Source: an uncultured Chitinophaga sp. | GTDB lineage: Bacteria; Bacteroidota; Bacteroidia; Chitinophagales; Chitinophagaceae | Direction of reading: 5' to 3' | Length of the DNA: 64,000 nt | Assembly: GCA_964386395.1 (NCBI GenBank) | Contig: CAYLRV010000001.1 | Coordinates: forward strand, 23,807 to 87,806 | In this document: positions 4,573 to 41,371 of the stretch, in pieces | Numbering within the stretch: position 1 is the stretch's first letter | How the letters are laid out: the number at the start of each line of letters is the position of its first letter | The notes under the pieces: generated by a model | Databases searched by the model: none | What the model was told of the DNA's origin: nothing | Seen by the model: only the letters and a program-made list of their open reading frames with translations | Program-made: the position numbers and the translations under genes

Positions 4573-5406
4573 CTATTCGTATTTTTTACTAAGCTGGTAC
4601 AATACTTTCAGCTGCTGGTCATTTAATCCCTTCGTTGTATCCTGCAACCAATGACGTTTGAAACCAATAATGGCTGCATTACTGTCCTTTGTATCATATC
4701 CAATGATCCGCAAGGCATGCAAACGATTGAAATTTGCAGGTAGCTGCACATTCGCTATATCATCATACCAGTACCCGAATCCTTTCTCCGATAATTGCTT
4801 CCAGGGAAAGCGCCAGTTGGGATCATTTTTACGGGTGGGCGCTATATCGCCGTGGCCGATAAAATTGGCTGCTGGTATGGAGTACGCATTTTTCAAACGG
4901 CCAAGCAGGGTGATCAAGCTATTTATTTGTGCTTCGGAAAAAGGCTCAAAGCCATTATTATCAAGTTCGATACCAACTGAAGAGGAATTTAAGTCAGTAG
5001 CATTGCCCCATTTGCTTACACCGGCATGGTGTGCCCTTAATAAATCATTGAGCATATGGTGCACGGTACCATCCTTACAAATTACATAGTGTGCACTTAC
5101 TTCACGGTTGCCTTTCACGGTAAACGTTCTTAACGTTTCCTCACAACTTTTCTGGGCAGTATGGTGGATGATCACATAGTTAGGCCGGCGTATGGTGAAG
5201 TTGATAGTACCAGCCCAATCCGCAGCATAATTCAATCCCGCGGAATCCTGTAAAGGATATTCAGCCAACAACTTTGCATATGCTTTTACCTGTTGCTTAT
5301 AAATTTTATTCGTACCCGCATATTTCGATTGCGAACAACCACAGGCAATAATAAGGAAGGCAAGGGACAGGGAAATGAACAAGCGGCTTTTTAAAAAGGA
5401 TTTCAT
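4573..5406 (-). CDS. N-acetylmuramoyl-L-alanine amidase (amidase_2 / AmpD-like) lipoprotein
   Basis: Lipobox LIIACGCS. Motifs YVIIHHTA, SAHYVI, HHAG, NSSSVGIELDN and IGHGDIAPTRKNDP are typical of zinc amidase_2. Confidence 0.75.
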   Translation of the reverse strand: MKSFLKSRLFISLSLAFLIIACGCSQSKYAGTNKIYKQQVKAYAKLLAEYPLQDSAGLNYAADWAGTINFTIRRPNYVIIHHTAQKSCEETLRTFTVKGNREVSAHYVICKDGTVHHMLNDLLRAHHAGVSKWGNATDLNSSSVGIELDNNGFEPFSEAQINSLITLLGRLKNAYSIPAANFIGHGDIAPTRKNDPNWRFPWKQLSEKGFGYWYDDIANVQLPANFNRLHALRIIGYDTKDSNAAIIGFKRHWLQDTTKGLNDQQLKVLYQLSKKYE

Positions 5407-29583: not shown

Positions 29584-31035
29584 TTACTCTCCTACAACCT
29601 CCTCGCTTCCTTTCTTTCGCCAGGATCTATGTTTAGCCCCGTCCATTTTTACAATCTTCGGGGTAAACTTACCGACCACATCCACCAATGCCTTCTGTGA
29701 TTGCATCACAACATTAATATCCTTGTAGGCAAAAGGTGATTCATCCAGTCCGCCACCCAGCAGTTTTACGCCAAACTTATCCAGTTCGTCTTTCATCTGC
29801 TTATCGGTAACAGAAGCGATGGCCCTTGTACGGCTCATCTTCCGTCCGGCACCATGCGAGGCAGAGTTGACAGATGCGGATTCGCCTTTACCTTTTACAA
29901 TAAATCCATCGGCGGTCATTGAGCCCGGTATAATACCCAATACATCTTTACCTGCAGGTGTTGCGCCTTTACGGTGAACGATCACATCCTTACCTTCCCA
30001 TTTTTCTTTCCAGGCAAAATTGTGGTGATTCTCCACCATCTTCACTGGTTTACGTCCCAGTTGCTTCGCAATTTTGGCATGTATTACATGGTGACAGGCG
30101 CTGGCATAATCACCAGCCAGGTTCATTGCATTCCAATACTCTATGCCTTCTTCTTCATCCAGCAAAAGCCAGGCAAGATTTTTTGATTCCTGCGGCAAAC
30201 GCCTTTTGCTGATAGCCAGTTTAGTATAGTGGTTCGCTATGTTAGCACCTAGTGCCCGAGAACCGGAGTGAGTAAGAAAACCAATGTACTTACCAGCTTC
30301 TATACCCAATACCTGATCTTCTTCTGCAATATCCACGACGCCAAATTCGGCGAAGTGGTTACCCGACCCGGATGAACCTAACTGCTTCCACACACGGCCA
30401 TGCAATTTTTTCAGCATCGGTAGTTGAAAAAATAATTCATGCTCCATCACTTCGTGGTTAGCCGCCCGATCGAATTGTGCGCCGCTGCCAAACAATGTAG
30501 CCTCATTGATTTCACGGGCAAAATATGATTCCCGGTCCGTCAGATCTTTTGGGTTGATATCGAATACACTCAGGCACATACGGCATCCGATGTCTACTCC
30601 TACTCCGTAAGGGATAACAGCATTCTCGGTTGCCAGTACGCCACCGATTGGCAATCCATACCCGCTATGTGCATCTGGCATCAAGGCGCCGGCCACACTC
30701 ACCGGCAATTTAGCTGCCTGGTACATCTGGTGCATAGCGCCTTCTTCGATATGTTCCTGTCCAAATACATTAAACTGTATGCCGGTTTGGTTCAGCGAAA
30801 TTTCTGCCCCTTCCGTTTCTTTCTTTGGTATCAGCTGTTCTGCTATCAATGCAAGTACTGCGTCATTGCTGTACTCGATTGGATTGGCCAATACTTTTTG
30901 TAATAGTTCCATCACTTCCTCCTTTCCATGATGCTTATATTTTTTTTGCATCACATCCATTGCTATGCTAATTACCGGTCCTTCCGGGTAGCCAATAGTC
31001 CTTAGTTCTTTTCCTGTTATTTTTAGTTTACTCAT
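29584..31035 (-). CDS. rtcB: RNA 3'-phosphate/2',3'-cyclic-phosphate to 5'-OH ligase RtcB
   Basis: Start at ATG 31035 (MSKLKITG). Diagnostic blocks MPDAHSGYGLPIGGV, GVDIGCRM, GSGNHF, HSGSR, NHHNFA and SASHGAGR. The roughly 90-aa N-terminal extension is not found in E. coli RtcB. Confidence 0.9.
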   Translation of the reverse strand: MSKLKITGKELRTIGYPEGPVISIAMDVMQKKYKHHGKEEVMELLQKVLANPIEYSNDAVLALIAEQLIPKKETEGAEISLNQTGIQFNVFGQEHIEEGAMHQMYQAAKLPVSVAGALMPDAHSGYGLPIGGVLATENAVIPYGVGVDIGCRMCLSVFDINPKDLTDRESYFAREINEATLFGSGAQFDRAANHEVMEHELFFQLPMLKKLHGRVWKQLGSSGSGNHFAEFGVVDIAEEDQVLGIEAGKYIGFLTHSGSRALGANIANHYTKLAISKRRLPQESKNLAWLLLDEEEGIEYWNAMNLAGDYASACHHVIHAKIAKQLGRKPVKMVENHHNFAWKEKWEGKDVIVHRKGATPAGKDVLGIIPGSMTADGFIVKGKGESASVNSASHGAGRKMSRTRAIASVTDKQMKDELDKFGVKLLGGGLDESPFAYKDINVVMQSQKALVDVVGKFTPKIVKMDGAKHRSWRKKGSEEVVGE

Positions 31036-31039
31036 TGTT

Positions 31040-31130
31040 TTGTTTTTTGAAACACGGTGACAGAGAGACAGGGGCGGCACAGTGTTTTTCGGTGTTGCCC
31101 TGTGTCGTTATGCCTTTGTGGTTCTATTTT
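31040..31130. repeat. GAACCACRRAG-type repeat arm (family shared with the GxxExxY cassette flanks)
   Basis: The reverse complement reads gaaccacaaaggcataacgacacagggcaac.... Compare gaaccacggagacacaaggacaggg at 38937. Confidence 0.45.
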
Positions 31131-31166
31131 TTGTTTACCAGCGACAGTAACTCCGGTCATCTTATG

Positions 31167-31352
31167 TTGCGTCGCACACTTCAGCTGCATATCCCTAATC
31201 ATCATAATCCCACATAATTTACCCTTTATTTAGATTCTCAAGCGCATCAATAAACTGTGCAACCCTTTCATCTTCTGACTCCTTGATAATAAAATCTAAC
31301 CGTTCAAAAGTATTTTCCAATAGAATTACAACAGTACAAGTGTGCGACGCAA
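31167..31352. repeat. Perfect 15-bp inverted repeat (TTGCGTCGCACACTT) bracketing about 150 bp
   Basis: 31167-31181 is the reverse complement of 31338-31352. The left arm is also found at 13325. Confidence 0.7.
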
Positions 31353-31383
31353 GGGACGATGATAGAAGCAATACAGCCTGTAA

Positions 31384-31425
31384 CATAAAAACATAAAACA
31401 TCCGGTACCGTTATAATACCGGATG
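31384..31425 (-). terminator. Rho-independent terminator after the SPFH gene
   Basis: 9-bp stem catccggta/taccggatg (31399-31425). On the minus strand it is followed by TTTTATGTTTTTATG. Confidence 0.75.
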
Positions 31426-31429
31426 TATA

Positions 31430-32527
31430 TTATTTACTTACCAAAATCTGCTTCAACTGCTCTAATAGCTGACCGTTACCGCCTACGCTGATATTGCTGA
31501 TTTTGTCGGCAATTTTCTCCACGTATTCCATTTCCTTCAGCTTCCAAAGCATGGCATTTTCTTCCATCAGTTTGGCTGTGTTCAGCAGGCTACGGGTGCT
31601 GGCAGTTTCTTCACGACGCATAATGGTGTTGGCCTGCGCCTTCTTTTCTGCCACCAGTACCTGGTTCATAATCTCTTTCATATCACCTGGCAGTATGATA
31701 TCACGAATACCAAAACCATTCACCGCAACACCCAATGCTTCTGCTTTTCCTTTCACACTTTGCAGGATAAAAGGAGCAATGGCTTCCTTCTTTTCCAGCA
31801 ATTCATCAAAGCCGAATCCGGCAATGTATTCACGCAGGGCCAGTTGCAGCGCCACGTACAGTTGCTTATCGTATTCTTTGTTCAGCACCATAGCTATTTC
31901 AAGGTCTGTTACGTTGTACTGTGACCAGGCATTGATACGCAATGCAGCCTTATCACGGGTCAGTATTTCCTGACCGTTGATTTCCAGTTGTTGCTGACGC
32001 ATATCTGCTTTCGCTACATGGATAGTGATACTGTTCTTCCACCAATAGTAGGTACCTGCATCCAGTTGCTTTACAAACTTACCATCTATGAACAACACCG
32101 CTTTCTCATAGCTTTGCACCTCGTAGTTACGCACCCAGTTGCTCACCGGTGCTTTTACCAGTACGGCACGGTCGATAGCCGTATCGATTTCAACCTGGCT
32201 GATATCAGCCCGAACGAAATCATTTTGCACAACAGATTTCCAGAATGCATAACGGCCGGCCGCCAGCACCTGCTTCAACAGGCCATTTTCGTATTGCAAC
32301 ACTATTTCTGTGTCTTTCACTTCCACTACCTGCAGTATAGCAGCCAGCTCCTTGTCCTGCAACAGGATGTTTAGTTCTACCGGTGCAGTGAATTGTTTGG
32401 TAATATCATAGATATATACCTGTTCGTTTTTCCAGAACCAGTAATTACCAGTCAGCAGCAGGCGCTTGTAGGCGCCATCTTTGAACACCAAACCAACCTG
32501 CCATGCGTTAATTTTTACTTTTTTCAT
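31430..32527 (-). CDS. SPFH/band-7 (slipin-like) domain protein with a duplicated N-terminal beta-rich region
   Basis: Start at ATG 32527 (MKKVKINAWQVGLVFKDG). C-terminal SPFH-type block IRDIILPGDMKEIMNQVLVAEKKAQANTIMRREETA. The N-terminal half contains two similar YWFWKN / YYWWKN segments. Confidence 0.7.
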   Translation of the reverse strand: MKKVKINAWQVGLVFKDGAYKRLLLTGNYWFWKNEQVYIYDITKQFTAPVELNILLQDKELAAILQVVEVKDTEIVLQYENGLLKQVLAAGRYAFWKSVVQNDFVRADISQVEIDTAIDRAVLVKAPVSNWVRNYEVQSYEKAVLFIDGKFVKQLDAGTYYWWKNSITIHVAKADMRQQQLEINGQEILTRDKAALRINAWSQYNVTDLEIAMVLNKEYDKQLYVALQLALREYIAGFGFDELLEKKEAIAPFILQSVKGKAEALGVAVNGFGIRDIILPGDMKEIMNQVLVAEKKAQANTIMRREETASTRSLLNTAKLMEENAMLWKLKEMEYVEKIADKISNISVGGNGQLLEQLKQILVSK

Positions 32528-32839
32528 TTTACTTGTTTTGCCCGTCAATAAACATTTATTTACTGTCAGCATGATTAATTAAAATAAAGCCGTGCTTGCC
32601 GCCACCAGTTACTACGGAATGAGATTAATACAACCCAGTTTCGTACAGTTCTTCACTCCCTCATCAGCTATACGTATATAACAAACTATGAGTGACGAAG
32701 TATAGTCAACTTCATTATACGCTTCTTATTTCGGGTAGCTGCCCGGCTGTATTGGTACAGGCTGCTTTAGCGTCCCGACCAATTACAGGCAACAAACCCG
32801 GCTTTTATCGGTCACCATTTTTTGAGAAGTGGTGTACTT

Positions 32840-33020
32840 CTTTGATACAAGCATCCTAAGTGCTTTGCGTTTACCATTTCCGCCATTTCCCCTTTAGAGG
32901 GAAAGCGGGATTCGAACCCGCATATTGTCTGTTGCTCTGTCCACTAAGCTACCGGGCCCATTGCCCGGATGGGATTCGAACCCATGACCCACAGGTTGTG
33001 GTGATATATGTATCAGTGAA
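32840..33020 (-). ncRNA. Structured RNA with two tandem, circularly permuted tRNA-like modules (YrlA / Y-RNA-like)
   Basis: Minus-sense order is: GATAC ATAT [ATCACCACAA] CCTGT GGGTC; T-arm1 ATGGG-TTCGAAT-CCCAT (32969-32985); loop-closed acceptor hairpin CCGGGC-AATGG-GCCCGG; TA; D-arm1 GCTT-AGTGGACA-GAGC; A; ACAG ACA ATAT G; T-arm2 GCGGG-TTCGAAT-CCCGC (32905-32921); hairpin TTTCCCT-CTAAA-GGGGAAA; TG; D-arm2; anticodon-like arm AAGCA-CTTAGGA-TGCTT; GTATC. The outer segments GATAC/GTATC, ATAT/ATAT and CCTGT/ACAG are complementary. The ends of the RNA are uncertain. Confidence 0.5.
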
Positions 33021-33163
33021 ATAATAGCATACAGATAGCTATTGCGTCTGCACTGCCATGCTTGTTAAACATGTACCTGGTTTATTTTCAACAGGCATAT
33101 ATCATCTTGCCGTTAAGCAAGCCATTACGTTGATGTTTTCGCATCAACAATATTGTAAAGAGC

Positions 33164-34240
33164 TTAATTCATCAATGTCTCCGGCAGGCGAAACCCAATT
33201 ATCTCGGTCTGCTTTACTTCCTGCTGCTTTTCATGCGGGTTGGCGATCTCCGCTATTGTCATCGGACCGGTTATTGTTTTATCATATCCCAAATGTTCGC
33301 TTAGCCGCTGCGCTTTTTCTTTACTGAGCTTTCCGAATTCATAACGGGCTATCAACCTTCCTTTCCGCAACAGGGCACTGTCAATGGCTGTCAGTGAACT
33401 GTTGAATGTGCATATCAATTGCACATTCAGGAAGTCGGCCAGCAGACCATCTGATATATTCAGCAGGTTACTCACCGCTGAACTGCTGTTTTGCTTCCTG
33501 TCCATGATAATATTCTCGGCATCTTCAATTATCAAGACTGTATTCGGGTTATTGATCAGCAGTTCGATAAACTCAGGGTTCATCAGGTTTCCCGCTACCG
33601 ATGGTGAAAGGAATAAAACCCTTTTCTTTACCTTACCCACCAGGTACCGTAAATAGGTTGTCTTTCCTGTACCCGGTAAACCATGCAGCAGTACAATACC
33701 TTTGTCATTCTTTTGCCTGAGCCTTTTTTGTATGACCGTATCCACATCTTTAAAATCGTCTTCGTAAAAAAGTCCCAGATCCAGCTTTGTCCGTTTTATT
33801 TCCATCGCCCGCAGATCCATCGAATTCCGGCTTTGCACAATCAGGTTGATCTCCAATGGCTGCCGGCGTTGCCTTTCTTTAAACTGAAGGGCAATGGCAA
33901 CAATCGCTTTTACCAGTTCCCCGTCACTGCCATCGTGGAGTATTTCGCAATAGTCATCCTCCAGCTCCACAATACAGTTTTGTTGCAACACAATAAGCGT
34001 TTTATCAAACTGAAATTTCTTCTTTTTACGCTTGTACCAGGTCGTCCGATGAATGTTCTTTATTGATTGCGCAAATTTCTCCTGCAATACAGCAAACACC
34101 TTCTCCCCTTCCACATCGCTGATAAAATTGATGTTTGGCAGTGCGTTAAAACTGTACAGGTACAACATCTTTGCGTCCAGGAAAGAGTCGCCAAACACAT
34201 TGTTTGCGTTTATAACTTTCTGACTGTATAGATTTTCCAT
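33164..34240 (-). CDS. AAA+ ATPase (classical AAA clade, Bcs1-like architecture) with an uncharacterised N-terminal domain
   Basis: Walker A HGLPGTGKTT, Walker B VLIIEDAE, second region of homology with RKGRL. The N-terminal roughly 190 aa carry no recognisable motifs. Confidence 0.8.
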   Translation of the reverse strand: MENLYSQKVINANNVFGDSFLDAKMLYLYSFNALPNINFISDVEGEKVFAVLQEKFAQSIKNIHRTTWYKRKKKKFQFDKTLIVLQQNCIVELEDDYCEILHDGSDGELVKAIVAIALQFKERQRRQPLEINLIVQSRNSMDLRAMEIKRTKLDLGLFYEDDFKDVDTVIQKRLRQKNDKGIVLLHGLPGTGKTTYLRYLVGKVKKRVLFLSPSVAGNLMNPEFIELLINNPNTVLIIEDAENIIMDRKQNSSSAVSNLLNISDGLLADFLNVQLICTFNSSLTAIDSALLRKGRLIARYEFGKLSKEKAQRLSEHLGYDKTITGPMTIAEIANPHEKQQEVKQTEIIGFRLPETLMN

Positions 34241-34341
34241 TGTCTTACATTTTAGCTGTTCCGTTGCCGGTAACAGTGTTCCTATTAATTTTTCGTTCCT
34301 TTCCTAATCTCCCGCCCGCAGGCAGGAGACCGAAAAGGTTG

Positions 34342-34848
34342 TTACTGTACCACTTTATTTGCACAGCTGGAGCTGGCAAAAGCTTCCGGTTTAGCCTTGA
34401 AAGCAAAACCCCTGCCTGTCCGGCAGGCAGGCATTCCCATGATATAGCCCATAGCTTCCTTCAGGGCATCGTTACTTTTAAAGTTTGGGTTGGTGTTGAT
34501 GTCCGCATGCACTTCCATATCCACACTGTAGCGGCTGAATATGTTGCACAGTGCATAGGCTACTTCGATACTTTTCTGTACTTCCATCAACATCCGTTCT
34601 TTAATCGTCATACGCTGGCGGGTTGTTTCATTATGGATATACATGAAACCACCTTTCCCTTTCCGGATGAATACGATTACCGTGGCAAACTCAGTCACCC
34701 TGGCTTTCACCTGGCTATCGGTACCAATGCAGACTTTCAATTCATGTCCATTCTCTTTTTCCTGCATCAATACACGGCTTACCTCTTCCGCAATCGGGAT
34801 TTGAATCCGTTCACCGGTCAATTTTCTCCATTGTTGTTCCTGTTCCAT
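34342..34848 (-). CDS. YkuK/DUF458-family RNase-H-like protein
   Basis: 168 aa. KVCIGTDSQ, FATVIVFIRKGKGGF and KPEAFASS resemble the DUF458 family. Carries the 21-nt palindrome in frame at 34411-34431. The start codon lies 30 nt downstream (minus sense) of the last tRNA-like element. Confidence 0.55.
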   Translation of the reverse strand: MEQEQQWRKLTGERIQIPIAEEVSRVLMQEKENGHELKVCIGTDSQVKARVTEFATVIVFIRKGKGGFMYIHNETTRQRMTIKERMLMEVQKSIEVAYALCNIFSRYSVDMEVHADINTNPNFKSNDALKEAMGYIMGMPACRTGRGFAFKAKPEAFASSSCANKVVQ

Positions 34849-34877
34849 TGTTTTTGTTTTTCAATGTTGTGCTGCAT

Positions 34878-34943
34878 AAGTACAAGGATTCGATCCACCT
34901 CCGGTGGATTGTAAGCCATTATGCTACCGTTACATCATACTTG
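34878..34943 (-). ncRNA. Degenerate tRNA-like element A (66 nt)
   Basis: Acceptor-like pairing AAGTATG/TGTACTT plus A73. The interior has a CTTACAA loop-like segment, the hairpin TCCACC-GGA-GGTGGA, and TCGAATCC, but no canonical T-stem. Confidence 0.3.
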
Positions 34944-34950
34944 CTTTTGT

Positions 34951-35022
34951 GGACAAAACAGGATTCGAACCTGTACTGCTGCGGCTTCAACGCAGTGCTC
35001 TGCCATTGGAGCTATTTGTCCT
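34951..35022 (-). tRNA. tRNA-Phe(GAA)
   Basis: GGACAAA TA GCTC-CAATGGCA-GAGC A CTGCG-TTGAAGC-CGCAG CAGT ACAGG-TTCGAAT-CCTGT TTTGTCC A. A fully canonical cloverleaf with no encoded CCA. Confidence 0.9.
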
Positions 35023-35116
35023 TTTGTTTGTACCTGCACTGGCTGATCTTTTACACTTCATCACCGAATTGTGTTGCACAAACTCTGTCTTCCCGCCATA
35101 GCGGAATTATCATTGC

Positions 35117-35204
35117 GGAGAGTAAAGGATTCGAACCTTTGTACCGTTGTGAACGACAGCCCAAGCTTAGCAGGCTGGCACATTACCACTCTGTCAACCC
35201 TCCT
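35117..35204 (-). tRNA. tRNA-Ser(GCU), class II
   Basis: GGAGGGT TG ACA-GAGTGGTAA-TGT G CCAGC-CTGCTAA-GCTTG, long variable arm GTCGTT-CAC-AACGGT, AAAGG-TTCGAAT-CCTTT ACTCTCC G. There is one C.U mismatch in the anticodon stem. Confidence 0.75.
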
Positions 35205-35208
35205 TTGT

Positions 35209-35292
35209 GTGATTAATAAGATTCGAACTTATTCAGCCCGAAGGCAACGGTTTTACAGACCGTTACGACTCTCCGTCTTCGTCGTACTCACC
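35209..35292 (-). tRNA. tRNA-Tyr(GUA), class II
   Basis: GTGAGTA CG ACGA-AGACGGAGAG-TCGT A ACGGT-CTGTAAA-ACCGT, variable arm GCC-TTCG-GGC, ATAAG-TTCGAAT-CTTAT TAATCAC A. Has C8 instead of U8 and one G.A mismatch in the acceptor. Confidence 0.8.
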
Positions 35293-35303
35293 AAAATTTC
35301 AGC

Positions 35304-35380
35304 GGATGAAGAAAGGGTCGAACTTTCAACCATCGGCTTAACATCCGCCACTGGCGGACTGCCATTGAGCTATTCATCCA
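35304..35380 (-). ncRNA. tRNA-like element E (perfect acceptor and T-arm, non-canonical core)
   Basis: GGATGAA TA GCTC AATGGCAG [TCCGCC-AGT-GGCGGA] TGTTAAGCCGATGGTT GAAAG-TTCGACC-CTTTC TTCATCC G. It has no D-stem partner and no 5-bp stem with a 7-nt anticodon loop. ATGTTAA could be a GUU (Asn) loop only with a poor stem. Confidence 0.4.
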
Positions 35381-35384
35381 TTGT

Positions 35385-35458
35385 TGTCCCGGTGAGATTC
35401 GAACTCACAACCCCCCGGTTAAAAGCCGGGTACATCTTCCAGTTGAGCTACGAGACAT
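35385..35458 (-). tRNA. tRNA-Lys(UUU) with a weak D-stem
   Basis: TGTCTCG TA GCTC-AACTGGAA-GATG TA CCCGG-CTTTTAA-CCGGG GGGTT GTGAG-TTCGAAT-CTCAC CGGGACA A. U1-A72 pair. Only 2 of 4 D-stem pairs form. Confidence 0.65.
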
Positions 35459-35464
35459 TTTTGT

Positions 35465-35556
35465 TGCGGCTACCGGATTCACTGTCTGCCGACAGGCAGG
35501 GAACCAGTAACTCCTGCCATGTAAAAACAGCTTTCTCCCATTGAATTAAGCCGCAC
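35465..35556 (-). tRNA. tRNA-Val(UAC)-like with a 20-nt T-loop insertion
   Basis: TGCGGCT TA ATTC-AATGGGA-GAAA G CTGTT-TTTACAT-GGCAG GAGTT ACTGG-TTC[CCTGCCTGTCGGCAGACAGT]GAAT-CCGGT AGCCGCA A. The insertion occupies plus 35482-35501. Confidence 0.6.
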
Positions 35557-35573
35557 TGCTTCATAAGGTTTGT

Positions 35574-35645
35574 GATGGTTGACAGATTCGAACTGTCAGC
35601 CGCTATCGTATCAGGATAGTACTCTGCCATTGAGTTAAACCATCA
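35574..35645 (-). tRNA. tRNA-Ile(GAU)
   Basis: GATGGTT TA ACTC-AATGGCA-GAGT A CTATC-CTGATAC-GATAG CGGCT GACAG-TTCGAAT-CTGTC AACCATC A. Canonical cloverleaf. Confidence 0.9.
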
Positions 35646-35649
35646 TTGT

Positions 35650-35721
35650 TGCGGCTGCCAGATTCGAACCAGCATTTGAAGCTTATGAGACTTCTGAGTT
35701 AGCCATTACGCTAAACCGCAA
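35650..35721 (-). tRNA. tRNA with CAU anticodon (Met or Ile2; cannot be distinguished here)
   Basis: TGCGGTT TA GCGT-AATGGCTA-ACTC A GAAGT-CTCATAA-GCTTC AAAT GCTGG-TTCGAAT-CTGGC AGCCGCA A. One D-stem mismatch and a G.U-rich T-stem. Confidence 0.7.
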
Positions 35722-35730
35722 TTAATATGT

Positions 35731-35804
35731 AAGCCTGGTGAGAATCGAACTCACACTACATGGCTTCTAAGGCCATTGCCTCTCCCAATTGGGCTACAAG
35801 CTTA
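35731..35804 (-). tRNA. tRNA with Leu anticodon UAG on a class I (short variable loop) body
   Basis: AAGCTTG TA GCCC-AATTGGGAG-AGGC A ATGGC-CTTAGAA-GCCAT GTAGT GTGAG-TTCGATT-CTCAC CAGGCTT A. Confidence 0.7.
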
Positions 35805-35814
35805 TTTCATTTGT

Positions 35815-35887
35815 CGGCCAGACTGGATTCGAACCAGTAACCTTTTGCGTATAAGGCAACTGCTCACACCGTTGAGCTACAGGCCGC
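35815..35887 (-). tRNA. tRNA-Ile(UAU)
   Basis: CGGCCTG TA GCTC-AACGGTGT-GAGC A GTTGC-CTTATAC-GCAAA AGGTT ACTGG-TTCGAAT-CCAGT CTGGCCG A. One U.U mismatch in the acceptor. Confidence 0.8.
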
Positions 35888-35895
35888 TTGTTTGC

Positions 35896-35988
35896 TGACT
35901 CAGAAAGATTCCCTGCCAGTCGGCAGACAGGGAACTTTCATCTCCTCATTCGTAGTGAGGTGTTCTTCTCCATTGAACTATAAGTCAT
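35896..35988 (-). tRNA. tRNA-Arg(ACG) with a 20-nt T-loop insertion
   Basis: TGACTTA TA GTTC-AATGGAGAA-GAAC A CCTCA-CTACGAA-TGAGG AGAT GAAAG-TTC[CCTGTCTGCCGACTGGCAGG]GAAT-CTTTC TGAGTCA G. The insertion occupies plus 35913-35932. All four stems are otherwise good. Confidence 0.7.
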
Positions 35989-35993
35989 CATTG

Positions 35994-36110
35994 TACGGCT
36001 TCAGGAATTCCTGCCTGGCCGGCAGCCAGGGAACCTCTGCAACGATCACCTGCTATTTTCCTCTCAGAAAGAAAGGGAGGTGATTATGTTTCCATTACAA
36101 CAAGCCGTAT
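35994..36110 (-). tRNA. Aberrant tRNA-like gene (possible Gln-CUG) with a T-loop insertion and an elongated anticodon arm
   Basis: Acceptor ACGGCTT/AAGCCGT (or TACGGCT/AGCCGTA). Outer stem CACCT/AGGTG encloses CCC TTTCT-TTCTGAG-AGGAA AATAGC. T-loop TTC[CCTGGCTGCCGGCCAGGCAG]GAAT (insertion at plus 36012-36031). The T-stem is weak. Confidence 0.4.
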
Positions 36111-36113
36111 TGG

Positions 36114-36186
36114 GTGCACTGCGGGGCTCGAACCCTGTTCTCCCGATGCACAGTCGGGCACTTTACCAAATAAGCTACAGCCACCA
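36114..36186 (-). tRNA. tRNA-His(GUG) with encoded G-1
   Basis: G(-1) GTGGCTG TA GCTT-ATTTGGTA-AAGT G CCCGA-CTGTGCA-TCGGG AGAA CAGGG-TTCGAGC-CCC.. CAGTGCAC C. G-1 lies opposite C73. The 3' acceptor strand has TG where C is expected, giving a 1x2 internal loop. Confidence 0.7.
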
Positions 36187-36191
36187 TCTGT

Positions 36192-36283
36192 TACCCGGCT
36201 CAGACTCCCTGTCTGCTGACAGGCAGGGAACTGAGAATACCAGACTCAAATTCTGGTGTGTTGCCAATTACACCACCCGGTAA
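36192..36283 (-). tRNA. tRNA-Gln(UUG) with a 20-nt T-loop insertion
   Basis: TACCGGG TG GTGT-AATTGGCA-ACAC A CCAGA-ATTTGAG-TCTGG TATT CTCAG-TTC[CCTGCCTGTCAGCAGACAGG]GAGT-CTGAG CCGGGTA A. The insertion occupies plus 36209-36228. Confidence 0.7.
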
Positions 36284-36287
36284 TCGT

Positions 36288-36335
36288 GCAGCATGAGTGA
36301 ATCCCTGTCTGCAGACTGGAAGTGAACATGCAGCC
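36288..36335 (-). ncRNA. Acceptor-stem-like hairpin enclosing a short copy of the palindrome, flanked by AGTGAA direct repeats
   Basis: gcagcatg (36289-36296) pairs with catgcagc (36328-36335) with one mismatch. The interior is agtgaa-tccctgtctgcagactgg-aagtgaa. The 3' side is followed by CGAT, like the CAAT trailers of the array. Confidence 0.3.
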
Positions 36336-36455
36336 TTCCGCCGCGGCGGATATCCGGCCAATCGAAATGCTCCTATATTTTGCTCAAAGAACTTTTGGAA
36401 AAGCATCCCCGCTGCACCTGCGGGGAGCTTTGTCCCTCCTTCTGCACATAATCTG

Positions 36456-36593
36456 TTAACGCAGTTCATATTCTGCAGGGTGACGAACTTTGCAGTTGGT
36501 CATTCCTTTGTGATGAACATTGCTTTTATTTTCTTTCTTTATCAGCACTTTCACTATAAAGTGAATGGCCAGTACTATCAGTAAAAATTTCAT
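36456..36593 (-). CDS. Small hydrophobic peptide (45 aa), possibly a leader or toxin-like ORF
   Basis: MKFLLIVLAIHFIVKVLIKKENKSNVHHKGMTNCKVRHPAEYELR. The ATG at 36593 is preceded by GAAAGGAGGTAGCT, a strong SD-like AGGAGG that is unusual for this genome. Confidence 0.35.
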   Translation of the reverse strand: MKFLLIVLAIHFIVKVLIKKENKSNVHHKGMTNCKVRHPAEYELR

Positions 36594-36712
36594 AGCTACC
36601 TCCTTTCTATTAACTGCATTTTTTATTTCCGCACTCTTCACCAATTGATTTCCTAACACTTCAACGACGGGAAATCTTTGTGGCAACCCACCTTCGCCAA
36701 AGCTTCGGTGGG

Positions 36713-36749
36713 TAAATAAAAAAACCCGGTCGTTTTTAGCGACCGGGTT
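36713..36749 (-). terminator. Rho-independent terminator (minus strand)
   Basis: aacccggtcg-tttttag-cgaccgggtt hairpin (36723-36749). In minus sense it is followed by TTTTTTTATTT. Confidence 0.75.
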
Positions 36750-37080
36750 TCCTGGCAAGCACAATTGTACTTACCTATGGATTGTCCGGTCGCCGATGGT
36801 GATCATTCTCATTACCTATGGGCACAATACTCCTGTTCGCTTGCGCAGAGCAATAGCATATGGCTGATAGTTGATCATTCATCGTTTGACTAAATCGTTT
36901 ATGTCGTAATAGTTTCAGCATTCTTTATTTTTCGGTTACAATAGATTCAAAACTTTTCCGATTACATAACTATTTTTCTTGTCCACTTACACTGAAGCTT
37001 GGGATTATCGCTTTCGCTTGCGCTGTGGGTAACACTTCTTCGCCGGCGGGTAACCCACCTTCGCTAAAGCTACGGTGGGT

Positions 37081-37109
37081 AAATAAAAAGCCCCGACGTT
37101 TGCCGGGGC
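37081..37109 (-). terminator. Rho-independent terminator after the Dabb gene (minus strand)
   Basis: gccccg-acgtttgc-cggggc hairpin. In minus sense it is followed by TTTTTATTT. Confidence 0.7.
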
Positions 37110-37331
37110 CTGTATTTCATTGAATTCGTTAGTATAACTTATCCTGGCAAAATACATGCCCCACAAACAGTGTAGTCTCCCTTGGGACTAAACCAATTCG
37201 CTGATTCAATATGTAATTTTATGCGTAGCATGTTTTTGTTTTGCAGTGCAAAGATGAATTTATTTTTTTGATGTTGCCAAATTTTTCTTGAAGAATTTTT
37301 AAAAATTATTTTTTTGCGCACAATTCCTATT

Positions 37332-37739
37332 TCAAATATCAACTGAATCATACACTATTACTTTACTCCACAAATGCGAATATTCCTCAATGAAAAGCAG
37401 GTGAATGGGATCAGTTTGATAACTCGCATGGTCTGCATCATTTTCAAAATACACCAGCCAGGATACAGCATAGCCTCTTTCAATTACTTCACGATTAGTA
37501 TCAGCCGGTTTACCAATCCGGAAACTTTTTATCGTTTTTACTTTCGATAATTTATGCAAACCTTCCACTAATTTTTCCCTGTCAGCAAGATTGTCCGTAT
37601 TCTTTAACCAGAAGAATACATGATGAATAAATGCAGCCTTCTTTTTGCCAGTTGATTTTGTTCCTGAAAAAGAAGATAACCCTGTTACGAGTGCGGCTGC
37701 ACCTGCTTTATTGATAAATTGTTTGCGGGTTTGTTTCAT
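37332..37739 (-). CDS. Dabb (stress-responsive A/B barrel) family protein with a Tat-like signal
   Basis: Start at ATG 37739 (MKQTRKQFINKAGAAALVTG). FIHHVFFWLKN...ASYQTDPIHLLFIE is typical of Dabb domains. Confidence 0.65.
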   Translation of the reverse strand: MKQTRKQFINKAGAAALVTGLSSFSGTKSTGKKKAAFIHHVFFWLKNTDNLADREKLVEGLHKLSKVKTIKSFRIGKPADTNREVIERGYAVSWLVYFENDADHASYQTDPIHLLFIEEYSHLWSKVIVYDSVDI

Positions 37740-37800
37740 GATGCCTGTATTTTCGGCATAAGGTAATGCAAAATTAAATGCCGGCAATCGCAGACCTGTT

Positions 37801-38910
37801 TCAAAACAACCTCCCCTGCCCGCCCGGTACCTGGAACTTACTCCTGTCAAGGCTCCATTCCTCCGCATTCATGCCGTATAGCTTACCGTATTTTTTATAC
37901 TGCATCGCTACCATCTCTGCGATATTCCCTTCGCCACGCATGCGTACGCCCCATCGGGTATCATTTACTTTTCCATCGTGGCTTTGTTCGATCAGGTGCC
38001 ACACTTTATCTGCCCTGTCGGGAAAGTTCTTATATAACCAGTCGTGAAATAGAAATTTTATCGCCCCGTTGAGCCGTATGAATGTATACGCTGTAAAGGT
38101 TGCGCCGTTGTCCTTCGCTGCTTTCATGATACGCTGCATTTCATGTTCATTCAGGCCCGGTATCATCGGCCCCATCATGATGCCCATCCGTACTCCTGCG
38201 CTGCTTAACTCGTTTATCACTTTCAGTTTTTGCTTAGCTGTGGTGGTGCGTGGCTCCATTGCCCTTCGCAGATCTTCATTGAAGGATGTAATGGATACCA
38301 TGGCTGACACAATCTGTTTCTTGCCCATTTCCTGCAGCACATCCTTGTCCTTCAGTATCCAGGAGTTTTTGGTGAGTATACCTACCGGCTGGTTAAATTC
38401 ATTGCAGACTTCCAGTAATCCTCTCGTCAGCCGGTATTTTTGTTCGGCAGGCTGGTAGCAATCGGTATTGCCACTGAGCATGATCGGCGTGGCATCCCAA
38501 TCCTTTTTCATCAGGAATTTTCGCAGCAGTTGTGGTGCATTTTTCTTGACAATTATTTTTCGCTCAAAATCCAGCCCGGCACTGTAACCCCAGTATTCAT
38601 GCACATTTCTTGCATAGCAATAGATGCAGCCATGCTCGCACCCGGCATACGGGTTCATGCTGTACATCATTCCCACATCCCTGCTCTCTACTTTGTTTAC
38701 GATGGTTTTTGATTCCTGTTCCATGTAAATAGTTGGCACATTTGATTCTTCCCAGTCGTCAATGCCTTCAATGTGCTCTCTTGTTGTTTCATTTTTTAAA
38801 AACCGGTTCTTTGTATTGAACTGGGCACCGCGACCGGCGAGGTAGGGCTTTGTTTCTTCAGGTTGCTTCACTTCTACTTTGAAATGATCTTGTTGCAAAT
38901 CCTTGCTCAT
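37801..38910 (-). CDS. Radical SAM protein (PA0069 / SplB-like COG1533 family)
   Basis: CxxxCxxC cluster motif in AGCEHGCIYCYARN. The length and remaining sequence fit the PA0069-type family. Confidence 0.75.
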   Translation of the reverse strand: MSKDLQQDHFKVEVKQPEETKPYLAGRGAQFNTKNRFLKNETTREHIEGIDDWEESNVPTIYMEQESKTIVNKVESRDVGMMYSMNPYAGCEHGCIYCYARNVHEYWGYSAGLDFERKIIVKKNAPQLLRKFLMKKDWDATPIMLSGNTDCYQPAEQKYRLTRGLLEVCNEFNQPVGILTKNSWILKDKDVLQEMGKKQIVSAMVSITSFNEDLRRAMEPRTTTAKQKLKVINELSSAGVRMGIMMGPMIPGLNEHEMQRIMKAAKDNGATFTAYTFIRLNGAIKFLFHDWLYKNFPDRADKVWHLIEQSHDGKVNDTRWGVRMRGEGNIAEMVAMQYKKYGKLYGMNAEEWSLDRSKFQVPGGQGRLF

Positions 38911-38929
38911 GCAATTGTTTTAAATAGTG

Positions 38930-39482
38930 ATTATTTTGAACCACGGAGACACAAGGACAGGGAGATGCACAGATATACACATACTGCCGGGAGACAGTCA
39001 CGGTGAGCTGGCGACAGGGAGAAGCACAAAAGCCGTGCTTATTTTTAAAGAATCATCCTTTTAATGCCATCTTTCATAAGCGGTGCGTGAAAATTTAATA
39101 CATAGCCAAGCCGCTTTTGTGTAAGGCGCAGGTAACTTAATAGCTGGGCATCCCAAACGGGATGATAGTTATCCTGCGCTTTCAATTCAACAATTATTAA
39201 ATTGTCAATCAATATATCAATCCGAAGACCATCACTAATGATCAATTTATCGTATACCAGTTCTACATTTTTTTGAACAACAAACGGAATATCCCTTTTG
39301 GTCAATTCATAACAGAAGCATTTTTCATACACACTTTCAATTAAGCCCGGACCGAGAAACCTATGGATCTTTATAGCAATATCCATTATTTGATATGTCA
39401 GCCATATTTCCCTTTCGGTTAAAGGTTTATGCTTTTTTTCTGTGCCGCTCCGTGCCGTCATGCCGCTGTGGTTCAAAATATA
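38930..39482. mobile_element. GxxExxY gene cassette bounded by GAACCAC...GTGGTTC inverted repeats
   Basis: Left arm gaaccacggagacacaaggacaggg (about 38937). Right arm ...ccgtcatgccgctgtggttc (about 39455-39474). The gene sits between them. Confidence 0.5.
39045..39461 (-). CDS. GxxExxY protein (PD-(D/E)XK-like family)
   Basis: Eponymous motif GPGLIESVYEKC (G-x-x-E-x-x-Y). The likely start is ATG 39461. Confidence 0.8.
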   Translation of the reverse strand: MTARSGTEKKHKPLTEREIWLTYQIMDIAIKIHRFLGPGLIESVYEKCFCYELTKRDIPFVVQKNVELVYDKLIISDGLRIDILIDNLIIVELKAQDNYHPVWDAQLLSYLRLTQKRLGYVLNFHAPLMKDGIKRMIL

Positions 39483-39483
39483 A

Positions 39484-40095
39484 TCAGAATAACTCCCCCT
39501 GCTTCGTTGCAACCGGCAGGTTCTGGAATTGGAATGTTGCTGCAATACGATATTTCATTTCCCCCACCGGCCGTTTGAGCAAAGTCATGCCATCAGCAAT
39601 AAACCGACCGGTAAAATGCTTTTGACTATACTCCAGCCAGCCCTTTTCATACTGCCAGGGCTTTAATTTCCGGGCAATGGTCAGGTGGGGCTCCATGATA
39701 AAATGCGGTTTATTATCCTCGTTCAGTTTCATCAGGCGCTGGCTTTCTGTACGGATGCTTTTTACCAGGCCTTGTACCGGTAATTTGCTGGTTACATTGA
39801 TATAAATAGTATGCGCCGGAAAACTGCCAAAATCTTTCAGCTCCACTTTAAATGGCGGGAAGCCCATGGCCACATTCCGCAGCCGGTTTAGTATCCGTTC
39901 TTCCAGCATGGCATGCTGCACAAAATTGACCAGCGTAATATGCGGCTTGCCCCATCTTGCATGATCCGATTTGTACGCAGTAGCAAAATCCTCCTTCACT
40001 TTCATTATCCTTTTCCATAGCTCTTCGTGCGGACTAAGCACCAATAAGTACTCATATTCCCGGTAGCCCGGGATCGTGTTGATAATACTTTCCAT
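39484..40095 (-). CDS. 2H-phosphoesterase superfamily protein (LigT / ThpR-like 2'-5' RNA ligase family)
   Basis: Two HxT motifs at the expected spacing: KPHITLVNF and EPHLTIARK. Confidence 0.7.
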   Translation of the reverse strand: MESIINTIPGYREYEYLLVLSPHEELWKRIMKVKEDFATAYKSDHARWGKPHITLVNFVQHAMLEERILNRLRNVAMGFPPFKVELKDFGSFPAHTIYINVTSKLPVQGLVKSIRTESQRLMKLNEDNKPHFIMEPHLTIARKLKPWQYEKGWLEYSQKHFTGRFIADGMTLLKRPVGEMKYRIAATFQFQNLPVATKQGELF

Positions 40096-40685: not shown

Positions 40686-41371
40686 AAACCCGGCGGGGTT
40701 CGCTTACTAATAAAATTAATTTGTATGGATATTCAACCGATAATCGAAGGCCAGTACTTCCATATTTACAATCGTGGTGTAAACAGCGAAGATATTTTTA
40801 AAGAAAAAAAGAATTACTACTATTTTCTTAAACAGTACAGCTTTTATTGCAATACGGTACTGGATACACTGGCGTATTGCTTATTGAAAAATCATTTTCA
40901 TTTACTCGTGTATGTCAAAGAAAATGTGGAAGTACCCCGCACTGACGGAAAAGAAGGCAGCTTTCGTCTGCATGCATCCAAACAACTGGGGCATTTTTTC
41001 AACTCCTACGCCCAATCCATCAATAAGGCCTATAAACGTACGGGACAACTTTTCGAATCCCCGTTTGAAAGAAAACTGGTGGACGATGAAAGTTATATGA
41101 TGTCCCTGATCTATTACTGTAATCAAAACGCCGTACATCATGGCTTCGTTAAGAGCACAAATGACTGGGAATTTTCTTCCTACCACGCTGTAATAAAAAA
41201 CGATAAAAGCCTTGTGGCTGTAGACCAGGTACTAAAGCGATTTGGCGATATTCAGCGATTTAAAGAAGCGCATACAACTAATAGCATAAAAGAAAAAGAG
41301 CAACAATATATTATAGACTATTAATCACTCTCCTATTTTAAACTACCGTCGGGGCCTACAGCCGCCGACGG
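40672..41371 (+). mobile_element. Y1-transposase-like cassette inserted between umuD and umuC, bounded by a 13-bp inverted repeat
   Basis: accccgtcggcgg (about 40669-40681, overlapping the umuD stop) versus ccgccgacggagt (41362-41374). 12 of 13 positions are complementary. Confidence 0.5.
40725..41324 (+). CDS. IS200/RAYT-like Y1 (HUH) transposase-family protein
   Basis: YFHIYNRG, the HUH-like NHFHLLV motif, and the C-terminal tyrosine helix LIYYCNQNAVHHGFV. Confidence 0.65.
   Translation: MDIQPIIEGQYFHIYNRGVNSEDIFKEKKNYYYFLKQYSFYCNTVLDTLAYCLLKNHFHLLVYVKENVEVPRTDGKEGSFRLHASKQLGHFFNSYAQSINKAYKRTGQLFESPFERKLVDDESYMMSLIYYCNQNAVHHGFVKSTNDWEFSSYHAVIKNDKSLVAVDQVLKRFGDIQRFKEAHTTNSIKEKEQQYIIDY

Follow-up and report, generated by a model that had tools for sequence, protein, structure and literature searches.

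A 20-nt near-palindrome in T-loops of a Chitinophagaceae tRNA array: evidence for a probable miniature DNA element

The question raised by this locus is why several tRNA genes should carry the same short palindrome in the T-loop. The locus lies in a 64,000-nucleotide (nt) stretch of DNA from an uncultured Chitinophaga sp. (contig CAYLRV010000001.1; the whole stretch is referred to as the window), in which an array of tRNA genes is linked to a gene for the RNA ligase RtcB. An earlier note, made from the sequence of the window, had considered a mini-element of the DNA, a functional extension of the tRNA elbow and an intron-like insert that RtcB would seal. The analysis presented here indicates that the inserts, termed PAL20, are probably copies of a miniature palindromic DNA element (consensus CCTGCCTGCCGGCAGGCAGG) that is widespread and non-autonomous and is tolerated in redundant tRNA genes. 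At the level of sequence, PAL20 was shown to be present or absent between orthologous genes, to measure exactly 20 nt in tRNAs, and to occur in many contexts and phyla.

Palindromic inserts in the tRNA genes of the window and its relatives

The 20-nt near-palindrome is present between T-loop nucleotides C56 and R57 (TTC^GA) of the genes for tRNA-Val(UAC), tRNA-Arg(ACG) and tRNA-Gln(UUG) and of one tRNA-like gene. A fifth, degenerate copy was identified in the same array, in a GTTC^GATT context. All PAL20-bearing host genes are on the minus strand. The hosts and copies are given below, with the inserts in tRNA sense; numbers preceded by L denote loci that were compared with the window.

35463..35555, minus strand: tRNA-Val(UAC) host, 73 nt plus the 20-nt insert; called by ARAGORN only after deletion of the insert; empty-site orthologue at L121 5556-5627
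35481..35500, minus strand: PAL20 copy 1, in tRNA-Val(UAC) between C56 and G57; CCTGCCTGTCGGCAGACAGT
35894..35987, minus strand: tRNA-Arg(ACG) host; called by ARAGORN after deletion; empty-site orthologues in L121 and L292
35912..35931, minus strand: PAL20 copy 2, in tRNA-Arg(ACG), in the opposite orientation; CCTGTCTGCCGACTGGCAGG
35994..36108, minus strand: 115-nt tRNA-like host of copy 3 ('Gln-CUG-like'); called by ARAGORN at a relaxed threshold only
36011..36030, minus strand: PAL20 copy 3, the most diverged; CCTGGCTGCCGGCCAGGCAG
36190..36282, minus strand: tRNA-Gln(UUG) host; called by ARAGORN after deletion; empty-site orthologues in L121 and L292
36208..36227, minus strand: PAL20 copy 4, in tRNA-Gln(UUG); CCTGCCTGTCAGCAGACAGG
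36283..36376, minus strand: decayed first tRNA of the array, host of copy 5; orthologous to L121 4715-4787 and L292 ~3880-3952
36304..36323, minus strand: PAL20 copy 5, degenerate and ambiguous; ACTTCCAGTCTGCAGACAGG

A motif scan of the 64-kb window, allowing up to three mismatches, returned five matches, one of which was an offset overlap of the Gln copy. All five were inside the tRNA array, compared with 0.02 expected from shuffles. Read in tRNA sense, every window copy sits between GTTC and GA(A/G/T)T. Two to three substitutions separate the copies from one another, and the T-stems of their hosts are unrelated in sequence. Both orientations are represented, as the earlier note had reported: the reverse complement of the Arg copy shows two differences from each of the Val and Gln-UUG copies. 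The insert sequences and the 56/57 position given in that note were correct, but its coordinates were 1 nt too high and its third host, taken for a Gln-CUG-like tRNA, is a 115-nt tRNA-like gene. This gene has an ACGGCTT/AAGCCGT acceptor, a weak T-arm and a long internal insert or hairpin, and is not a canonical tRNA.

Following exact deletion of the 20 nt, ARAGORN at default settings called Val(UAC), Arg(ACG) and Gln(UUG). The Rfam tRNA model could not bridge the insert and neither backed nor contradicted the boundaries, which were therefore taken from the deletion test and the orthologue alignments described below. ARAGORN at very relaxed thresholds was too noisy for classing the hosts. No Rfam family covering the hairpin was found at permissive thresholds. 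The cloverleaf stems of the Val, Arg and Gln hosts are still perfect, and the palindrome stems of the window copies carry uncompensated mutations (G20U in Val, A14U in Arg). Part of copy 5 was aligned by MAFFT to that tRNA's own 3' strand, CCTGTCTGC. The idea that the palindrome arose when the 3' segment of a tRNA folded back was considered and rejected: the first array tRNA has CCTGCCTGC or CCTGTCTGC, and the 9-nt match is at an estimated chance level.

Homologous arrays are present in two syntenic Chitinophagaceae loci, L121 and L292/L293. When the Arg-ACG, Gln-UUG and Val-UAC genes were aligned with their orthologues using MAFFT, the relatives' TTCGAA was intact and a clean 20-nt gap was placed between TTC and GA. 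The T-loop boundaries that had been drawn by hand in the earlier note were thus right, and the orthologous arrays with empty TTCGAA sites that it had proposed to look for do exist, in L121 and L292 for Arg and Gln and in L121 for Val. Compensatory changes in the acceptor stem and T-stem of the window Arg gene, as read from the alignment, indicate that the tRNA body is under structural constraint.

The relatives also have inserts of their own. In L121, one copy is located at D-loop 18/19 (G18/G19) of an Ile-GAU-like tRNA and two copies are intergenic. In L292, copies are located in tRNA-Asp(GUC) at 53/54, in tRNA-Phe(GAA) at 56/57, and at 53/54 of a tRNA-like minihelix (4277-4351), a 75-nt acceptor-plus-T-arm gene that is the orthologue of the window's third host. 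In the tRNA-Phe host, the T-arm has decayed and the acceptor stem contains a mismatch. The inserts are thus independent gains, or losses, that took place at the DNA level within an array common to these loci. Together, the window, L121 and L292 contain 11 copies, all of them inside ~4.5 kb of array DNA, with none in ~82 kb of flanking DNA. The related arrays L122-L126 and L282-L291 have the array and the RtcB operon, and zero PAL20 copies.

Minimum-free-energy and centroid folds of the RNA were computed for the Arg and Gln hosts, and these preserved the acceptor, D and anticodon arms. TTC paired with GAA, and the T-stem, T-loop and palindrome formed one helix of ~16-17 bp with a single 1-nt bulge, in which the two insert junctions are directly opposite each other. 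There was no bulge-helix-bulge at the junctions in these two host folds, which showed a continuous helix instead. As a consequence of the TTC/GAA pairing, the T-loop motif needed for the elbow is predicted to be lost, which argues against the functional elbow extension that the earlier note had entertained.

Copies in other genomes, tRNA genes and protein-coding genes

A scan of 185,579 species genomes with the pattern CCCTGYCWGYYRRCWGRCAGGG identified at least 120 loci, compared with a chance expectation estimated to be of the order of ten. The matches listed (at least 120) came from Saccharibacteria, other Patescibacteria (candidate phyla radiation, CPR), Omnitrophota, Bacteroidota, anammox Planctomycetota, Ignavibacteria, Proteobacteria and others. 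Among the 120 matches listed, 77 had the exact palindrome consensus and 21 had one asymmetric variant, CCTGTCTGCCGACAGGCAGG, in either orientation. This asymmetric sub-family is common in Bacteroidota and has been propagated as a unit in both orientations; judged by sequence, the window copies are derived from it. The exact 20-mer was present in many metagenome contigs, among the matches listed, and in 35 viral contigs. Since the same palindrome is found in very different bacteria and in phages, it behaves like a mobile DNA element and not like a bacterial tRNA intron.

An adaptor or assembly artefact was rejected on the basis of the point mutations, the stable asymmetric sub-family and the copies that lie in frame in conserved genes. 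PAL20 was found in an isolate genome and in assemblies of many sources, and we know of no match to common adaptor or linker sequences.

Flank preferences were weak in the copies collected without constraint on their flanks. There was no consistent target-site duplication, as direct repeats of at least 7 nt flanked only 3/162 copies. Copies inside open frames (at least 60+60 codons) amounted to 39/136 (29%), compared with 56% in controls, an approximately 2-fold depletion. A preference for hairpin loops in general was not significant in the flank-unconstrained set (7.4% vs 5.1% in controls). All-against-all clustering of 2,044 open reading frames (ORFs) within 1.5 kb of the copies, at ~275 loci, showed no enriched family and no transposase that might mobilise the element; the largest neighbour protein cluster, an ABC transporter, was present at 8 of ~275 loci. 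Homologs of RtcB, DUF458, Band7 and AAA were found at 0/275 palindrome-selected loci (within ~8 kb for RtcB and DUF458).

Two further features of the flanks were noted. A cross-phylum repeat, GTCATTCTGAGC..CGAAGAATC or GTCATTGCGAG..CGAAGCAATC, flanks the palindrome at L018, L064, L111, L063, L010, L053 and L186. The outer stem of this repeat covaries (ATTCT/AGAAT, ATCCT/AGGAT, ATTGC/GCAAT). The repeat also occurs in ORFs, where it reads ..IASS..SRND.., and it hosts nested PAL20 copies. At L012, L040, L269 and L087, the copies are embedded in much longer perfect palindromes of CCTG/CCCTG units (e.g., CTGCCCTGCCTGCCCTGCCTGCC|GGCAGG...), which suggests that the palindrome can grow outward.

The association with tRNAs extends beyond the window. 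Among the C/G-flanked copies, 13/116 had the GTTC^GA context, compared with ~0.9 expected, and ~10 of these 13 have T-stem complementarity. In the flank-unconstrained set, only 1/~164 was in a T-loop or T-arm, at 53/54. The earlier note had named a common repeat, scattered without site preference, as the finding that would tell against its proposal; PAL20 is indeed common and scattered, but T-loops are hit far above chance. Its suggestion of a DNA-level mini-element is supported by the empty orthologous TTCGAA sites, the two orientations and the dispersal of the repeat over hundreds of unrelated loci. The strict specificity for TTC^GAA that went with this suggestion did not hold, given the single T-loop copy in the flank-unconstrained set and the copies at 53/54, at 18/19, between genes and in ORFs.

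The GTTC^GA T-loop hosts are partial or tandem duplicate tRNAs situated directly after an intact copy of the same tRNA. tRNA-Arg accounts for 6/9 duplicate hosts (L006, L013, L022, L026, L032, L034, L101, L103 and L161). The duplicates lie 10-100 nt downstream of the intact copy and are often identical to it in sequence. Some PAL20 hosts are truncated tRNA fragments. D-arm insertions were identified in L026, L199 and L278, the last (515-534) in a phage-encoded Lys(UUU)-like tRNA, where D-loop and D-stem meet. No anticodon-loop insertion was present among ~25 tRNA-associated copies. In a phage tRNA-Met(CAU), the palindrome lies in the variable loop (L271 2284-2303), and a further viral contig copy is at L248 8616-8635. 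T-loops are hit far above chance and, so far, always in spare tRNA copies; this fits targeting together with survivorship and proves neither.

Copies within protein-coding genes bear directly on the fate of the insert in RNA. One Patescibacteria prolyl-tRNA synthetase (ProRS) contains a clean 7-residue block, HLVSL|SAGRQGS|GH, a net gain of 21 nt, and orthologues at 72-84% identity are without it. A within-gene comparison at L053 likewise gave a net gain of 21 nt. In TopA, MnmA and PBP1A, the reading frame that matches solved structures is unchanged from one side of the element to the other. As the element is in frame and homology continues beyond it in all four proteins, it is translated there, and excision of a 20-mer would shift the frame, which excludes general RNA-level excision for these hosts. 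The palindrome has zero stop codons in any frame. It follows, from these sequences, that in ORFs selection retains only in-frame outcomes. A frame-phase test of 20-nt ORF interruptions, in which phase +2 seemed enriched (15/36), was discarded, as the frames were mostly spurious ones in high-GC contigs or belonged to adjacent genes.

The host array, its gene neighbourhood and a second palindrome family

The array and the features around it are as follows.

34875..36376, minus strand: accessory array of ~17 tRNA or tRNA-like genes, from ARAGORN, the Rfam tRNA model and the deletion test
34342-34848, minus strand: DUF458/YkuK, RNase H-like, downstream of the array
33164-34240, minus strand: AAA ATPase, downstream of the array
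31430-32572, minus strand: SPFH/Band 7, downstream of the array
29584-31080, minus strand: RtcB, downstream of the array
36337..36350, minus strand: pal2, the second palindrome family, TCCGCCGCGGCGGA; takes the place of the anticodon arm in the decayed first tRNA
35344..35358, minus strand: pal2, TCCGCCAGTGGCGGA, in an Asn(GUU)-like tRNA (35303-35379), at its D/anticodon junction; absent from the orthologue L121 5712-5783

Called directly, the array comprised 7 tRNAs by ARAGORN and 12 by the Rfam tRNA model, weak ones included. It resembles an accessory long tRNA array in having many tandem tRNA genes, some of them degenerate, and linked RNA-repair genes. Co-regulation with rtcB has been described for long tRNA arrays, or L-arrays (PMC8421152). 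These share with the window array the tandem tRNA genes, including pseudogenes, and the link to RtcB, and they provide its host context and likely redundancy; palindromic T-loop insertions are not described there. The window array differs in its occurrence in Chitinophagaceae and in its DUF458-AAA-Band7-RtcB cassette.

Upstream of the array are genes for radical SAM, Dabb-domain and PD-(D/E)XK_3 proteins and for a 2H/LigT phosphoesterase. The whole forms a conserved Chitinophagaceae cassette (29584-40095, minus strand) in the order LigT/2H phosphoesterase, PD-(D/E)XK_3, radical SAM, Dabb, array, DUF458/YkuK, AAA, SPFH/Band 7 and RtcB. Synteny was seen in L121, L282, L288 and L292, and DUF458 homologs with 80-88% identity are present in Chitinophagaceae and other Bacteroidota. 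The gene content differs among relatives: in L122-L125, a Fic gene and an MmeI-type restriction-modification gene occupy the region after Band 7 that contains RtcB in the window. The cassette looks like an RNA-repair or tRNA-replenishment island. The DUF458-AAA-Band7-RtcB genes (29584..34848) are taken as genomic context of the palindrome only.

pal2 is GC-rich (TCCGCC..GGCGGA, 14-16 nt) and recurs at the D-stem/anticodon-stem junction, with further copies at L121 4808-4823, in L022 and in L032 (~3972). In L022 and L032, which belong to two other phyla, it lies in duplicate tRNA copies that also bear PAL20 in the T-loop.

Other observations concern the array and its surroundings. One array tRNA (35813-35886, minus strand), called Ile-UAU by ARAGORN, has a UAU anticodon, which is unusual for bacteria. 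Low-scoring tRNA-like genes are present at 34875-34944, 35208-35291 and 35303-35379. Immediately before the first array gene there is a conserved GC hairpin of the CCCCGC..GCGGGG type (window 36397-36435, L121 ~4600-4625, L292 ~3825-3850), which may terminate the upstream unit or regulate the array. At L292/L293 1-69, next to the Peptidase_S24-LigT end, an IS200/RAYT-like Y1 transposase gene (PF01797) runs off the locus; it is only a lead. No counterpart was detected at the equivalent position of the window, where the ORF 40725-41324 has no Pfam hit.

Explanations of the inserts and their relation to known elements

The miniature DNA element that we favour would have reached the array as follows. 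Inserting in one orientation or the other, copies would have entered the DNA of the RtcB-linked array at the TTC^GA dyad centre of the T-arm, and would persist because the array tRNAs are redundant. They would have been copied by a trans-acting, hairpin- or dyad-directed copy-and-paste process, or by short-patch conversion, with no enzyme encoded by the element. The transcript would retain the insert, the T-arm becoming a rod of ~16-17 bp without a T-loop, and the affected tRNAs would be crippled in canonical elbow-dependent steps and free to decay. Several results weigh against this interpretation. A mobilising enzyme was not found, with no enriched neighbour family or transposase at ~275 copies, and general hairpin-loop targeting was not significant. 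Identical 20-mers across phyla are unlike ordinary lineage-specific families of repetitive extragenic palindromes (REP). The perfect cloverleaf stems of the Val, Arg and Gln hosts are equally compatible with retained function. The insertion measures 20 nt in tRNAs and a net 21 nt in two coding contexts, which leaves the insertion unit not fully defined. Furthermore, the redundancy of the array tRNAs is taken from the long-array literature (PMC8421152) and not from this genome.

The inserts could also go back to one primary insertion that then spread inside the array by short-patch gene conversion between T-arms. The GGTTC/GAATCC flanks are common to all T-arms and nearly palindromic, so conversion at 56/57 could occur in either orientation, and the symmetry of the TTCGAA centre can be read directly from the sequence. 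This would account for five window copies at the same position, in the same asymmetric sub-family and confined to the array. However, these copies differ by two to three substitutions within T-stems of unrelated sequence, the 56/57 site recurs in unrelated phyla, and conversion from T-loop to T-loop cannot yield the copies at 53/54, at 18/19 and between the genes of related arrays, and we consider this account unlikely. Somewhat less likely again is that the hairpin is a selected RNA feature, which makes functional rod-T-arm tRNA mimics that a blocked elbow keeps out of translation and that might, for example, act in the setting of RtcB repair as decoys for tRNA-targeting nucleases or as sensors of them. 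The perfect acceptor, D and anticodon stems of Val, Arg and Gln, the lack of any insertion in an anticodon loop among ~25 tRNA-associated copies, the recurrence at two elbow positions (56/57 and 18/19), and the pairing of pal2 at the D/anticodon junction with PAL20 at 56/57 in three phyla (window fifth host, L022 and L032) are all consistent with such mimics. The uncompensated stem mutations are not, nor is the presence of both orientations; orthologous arrays work without the insert, at least one host (L292 Phe) is decaying, and the same element is found in ORFs and intergenic DNA, where a tRNA logic is inapplicable.

If the insert were intron-like, an endonuclease, possibly the DUF458 protein, would cut it out of the pre-tRNA, and the neighbouring RtcB would then join the exons. 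Exact removal of the 20 nt would restore canonical tRNAs, and the array has as its neighbours genes for RtcB, for a 2H/LigT phosphoesterase and for an RNase H-like DUF458 protein. In archaea, bulge-helix-bulge tRNA introns at non-canonical positions are joined by RtcB (PMC4090602, PMC3239211), and the window shares with these a short insert in the tRNA T-loop and an RtcB gene next to the array. PAL20 differs in having no bulge-helix-bulge, its predicted helix being continuous, in having no recognised splicing endonuclease (no EndA-family match among the neighbour genes scanned), in occurring in both orientations, and in being translated in ORFs. ProRS, TopA, MnmA and PBP1A, whose frame would be broken by removal of a 20-mer, speak against the intron proposed in the earlier note. 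The same RtcB operon and array occur without the insert in L122-L126 and L282-L291, neither RtcB nor DUF458 is near any of the 275 palindrome-selected loci, and the element also resides at 53/54, at 18/19, in a variable loop, between genes and in truncated tRNA fragments. We therefore regard the intron as very improbable. A bolder combination would make PAL20 a pan-bacterial 20-nt mobile hairpin that has no enzyme of its own and crosses phyla, possibly via phages, and whose placement at the elbow (56/57, 53/54, 18/19) of spare tRNAs creates maintained, elbow-blocked tRNA mimics, acting as decoys or regulators in tRNA cleavage-repair conflicts or entering a new processing route at the RNA level. 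This is a long shot, rated just below the selected mimics and above the intron.

As a miniature DNA element, PAL20 is best filed with the small dispersed palindromic repeats of the REP, SDR and Rickettsia palindromic element (RPE) kinds, among which its size, cross-phylum identity and use of T-loops are unusual. The small dispersed repeats (SDR) of Nostoc/Anabaena are reportedly 'very small mobile repeated elements' (attributed to Elhai and colleagues) that form hairpins of ~20-27 nt. As described (cited via PMC3116915), they resemble PAL20 in being dispersed and nestable, in varying in presence between orthologous sequences, and in having no enzyme and no obvious target duplication. PAL20 correspondingly is a hairpin within the ~20-27-nt range, present or absent at orthologous sites (tRNAs, ProRS) and without a consistent target duplication. 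Compared by description, SDRs are known from within cyanobacteria, whereas PAL20 is identical across phyla and viral contigs and recurs in tRNA T-loops, in D-loops and inside ORFs.

REP/REPIN sequences (RAYT, Y1 HUH) are likewise short imperfect palindromes with many dispersed copies and no target duplication. In contrast to these, PAL20 is not confined to extragenic DNA (39/136 in open frames, and in frame in essential genes), has no GTAG/CGTC tag in its flanks and no RAYT enriched nearby, and is not lineage-specific. RPEs are ~100-150 bp long and belong to one genus only. Like PAL20, they are palindromic selfish DNA that survives in frame in protein-coding genes, and in RNA genes; PAL20 differs in measuring 20 nt and in crossing phyla. 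Searches by sequence and by topic gave no description of the palindrome or of bacterial T-loop mini-insertions in the searchable literature, and the cross-phylum identity of PAL20 and its recurrent T-loop targeting appear undescribed.

In practical terms, the inserts keep ARAGORN and the Rfam model from recognising tRNA genes, three of which were missed here, and they add 7-residue peptides (e.g., LPAGRQG) to conserved proteins. For tRNA biology, a tempting claim of a bacterial T-loop intron is removed. If confirmed, PAL20 would rank among the smallest known DNA elements of a mobile-like kind. In contrast to the REP, SDR and RPE families, the same 20 nt are found in Patescibacteria, Omnitrophota, Bacteroidota, Planctomycetota, Proteobacteria and phage contigs, which raises the question of which machinery copies a 20-nt palindrome across such hosts.

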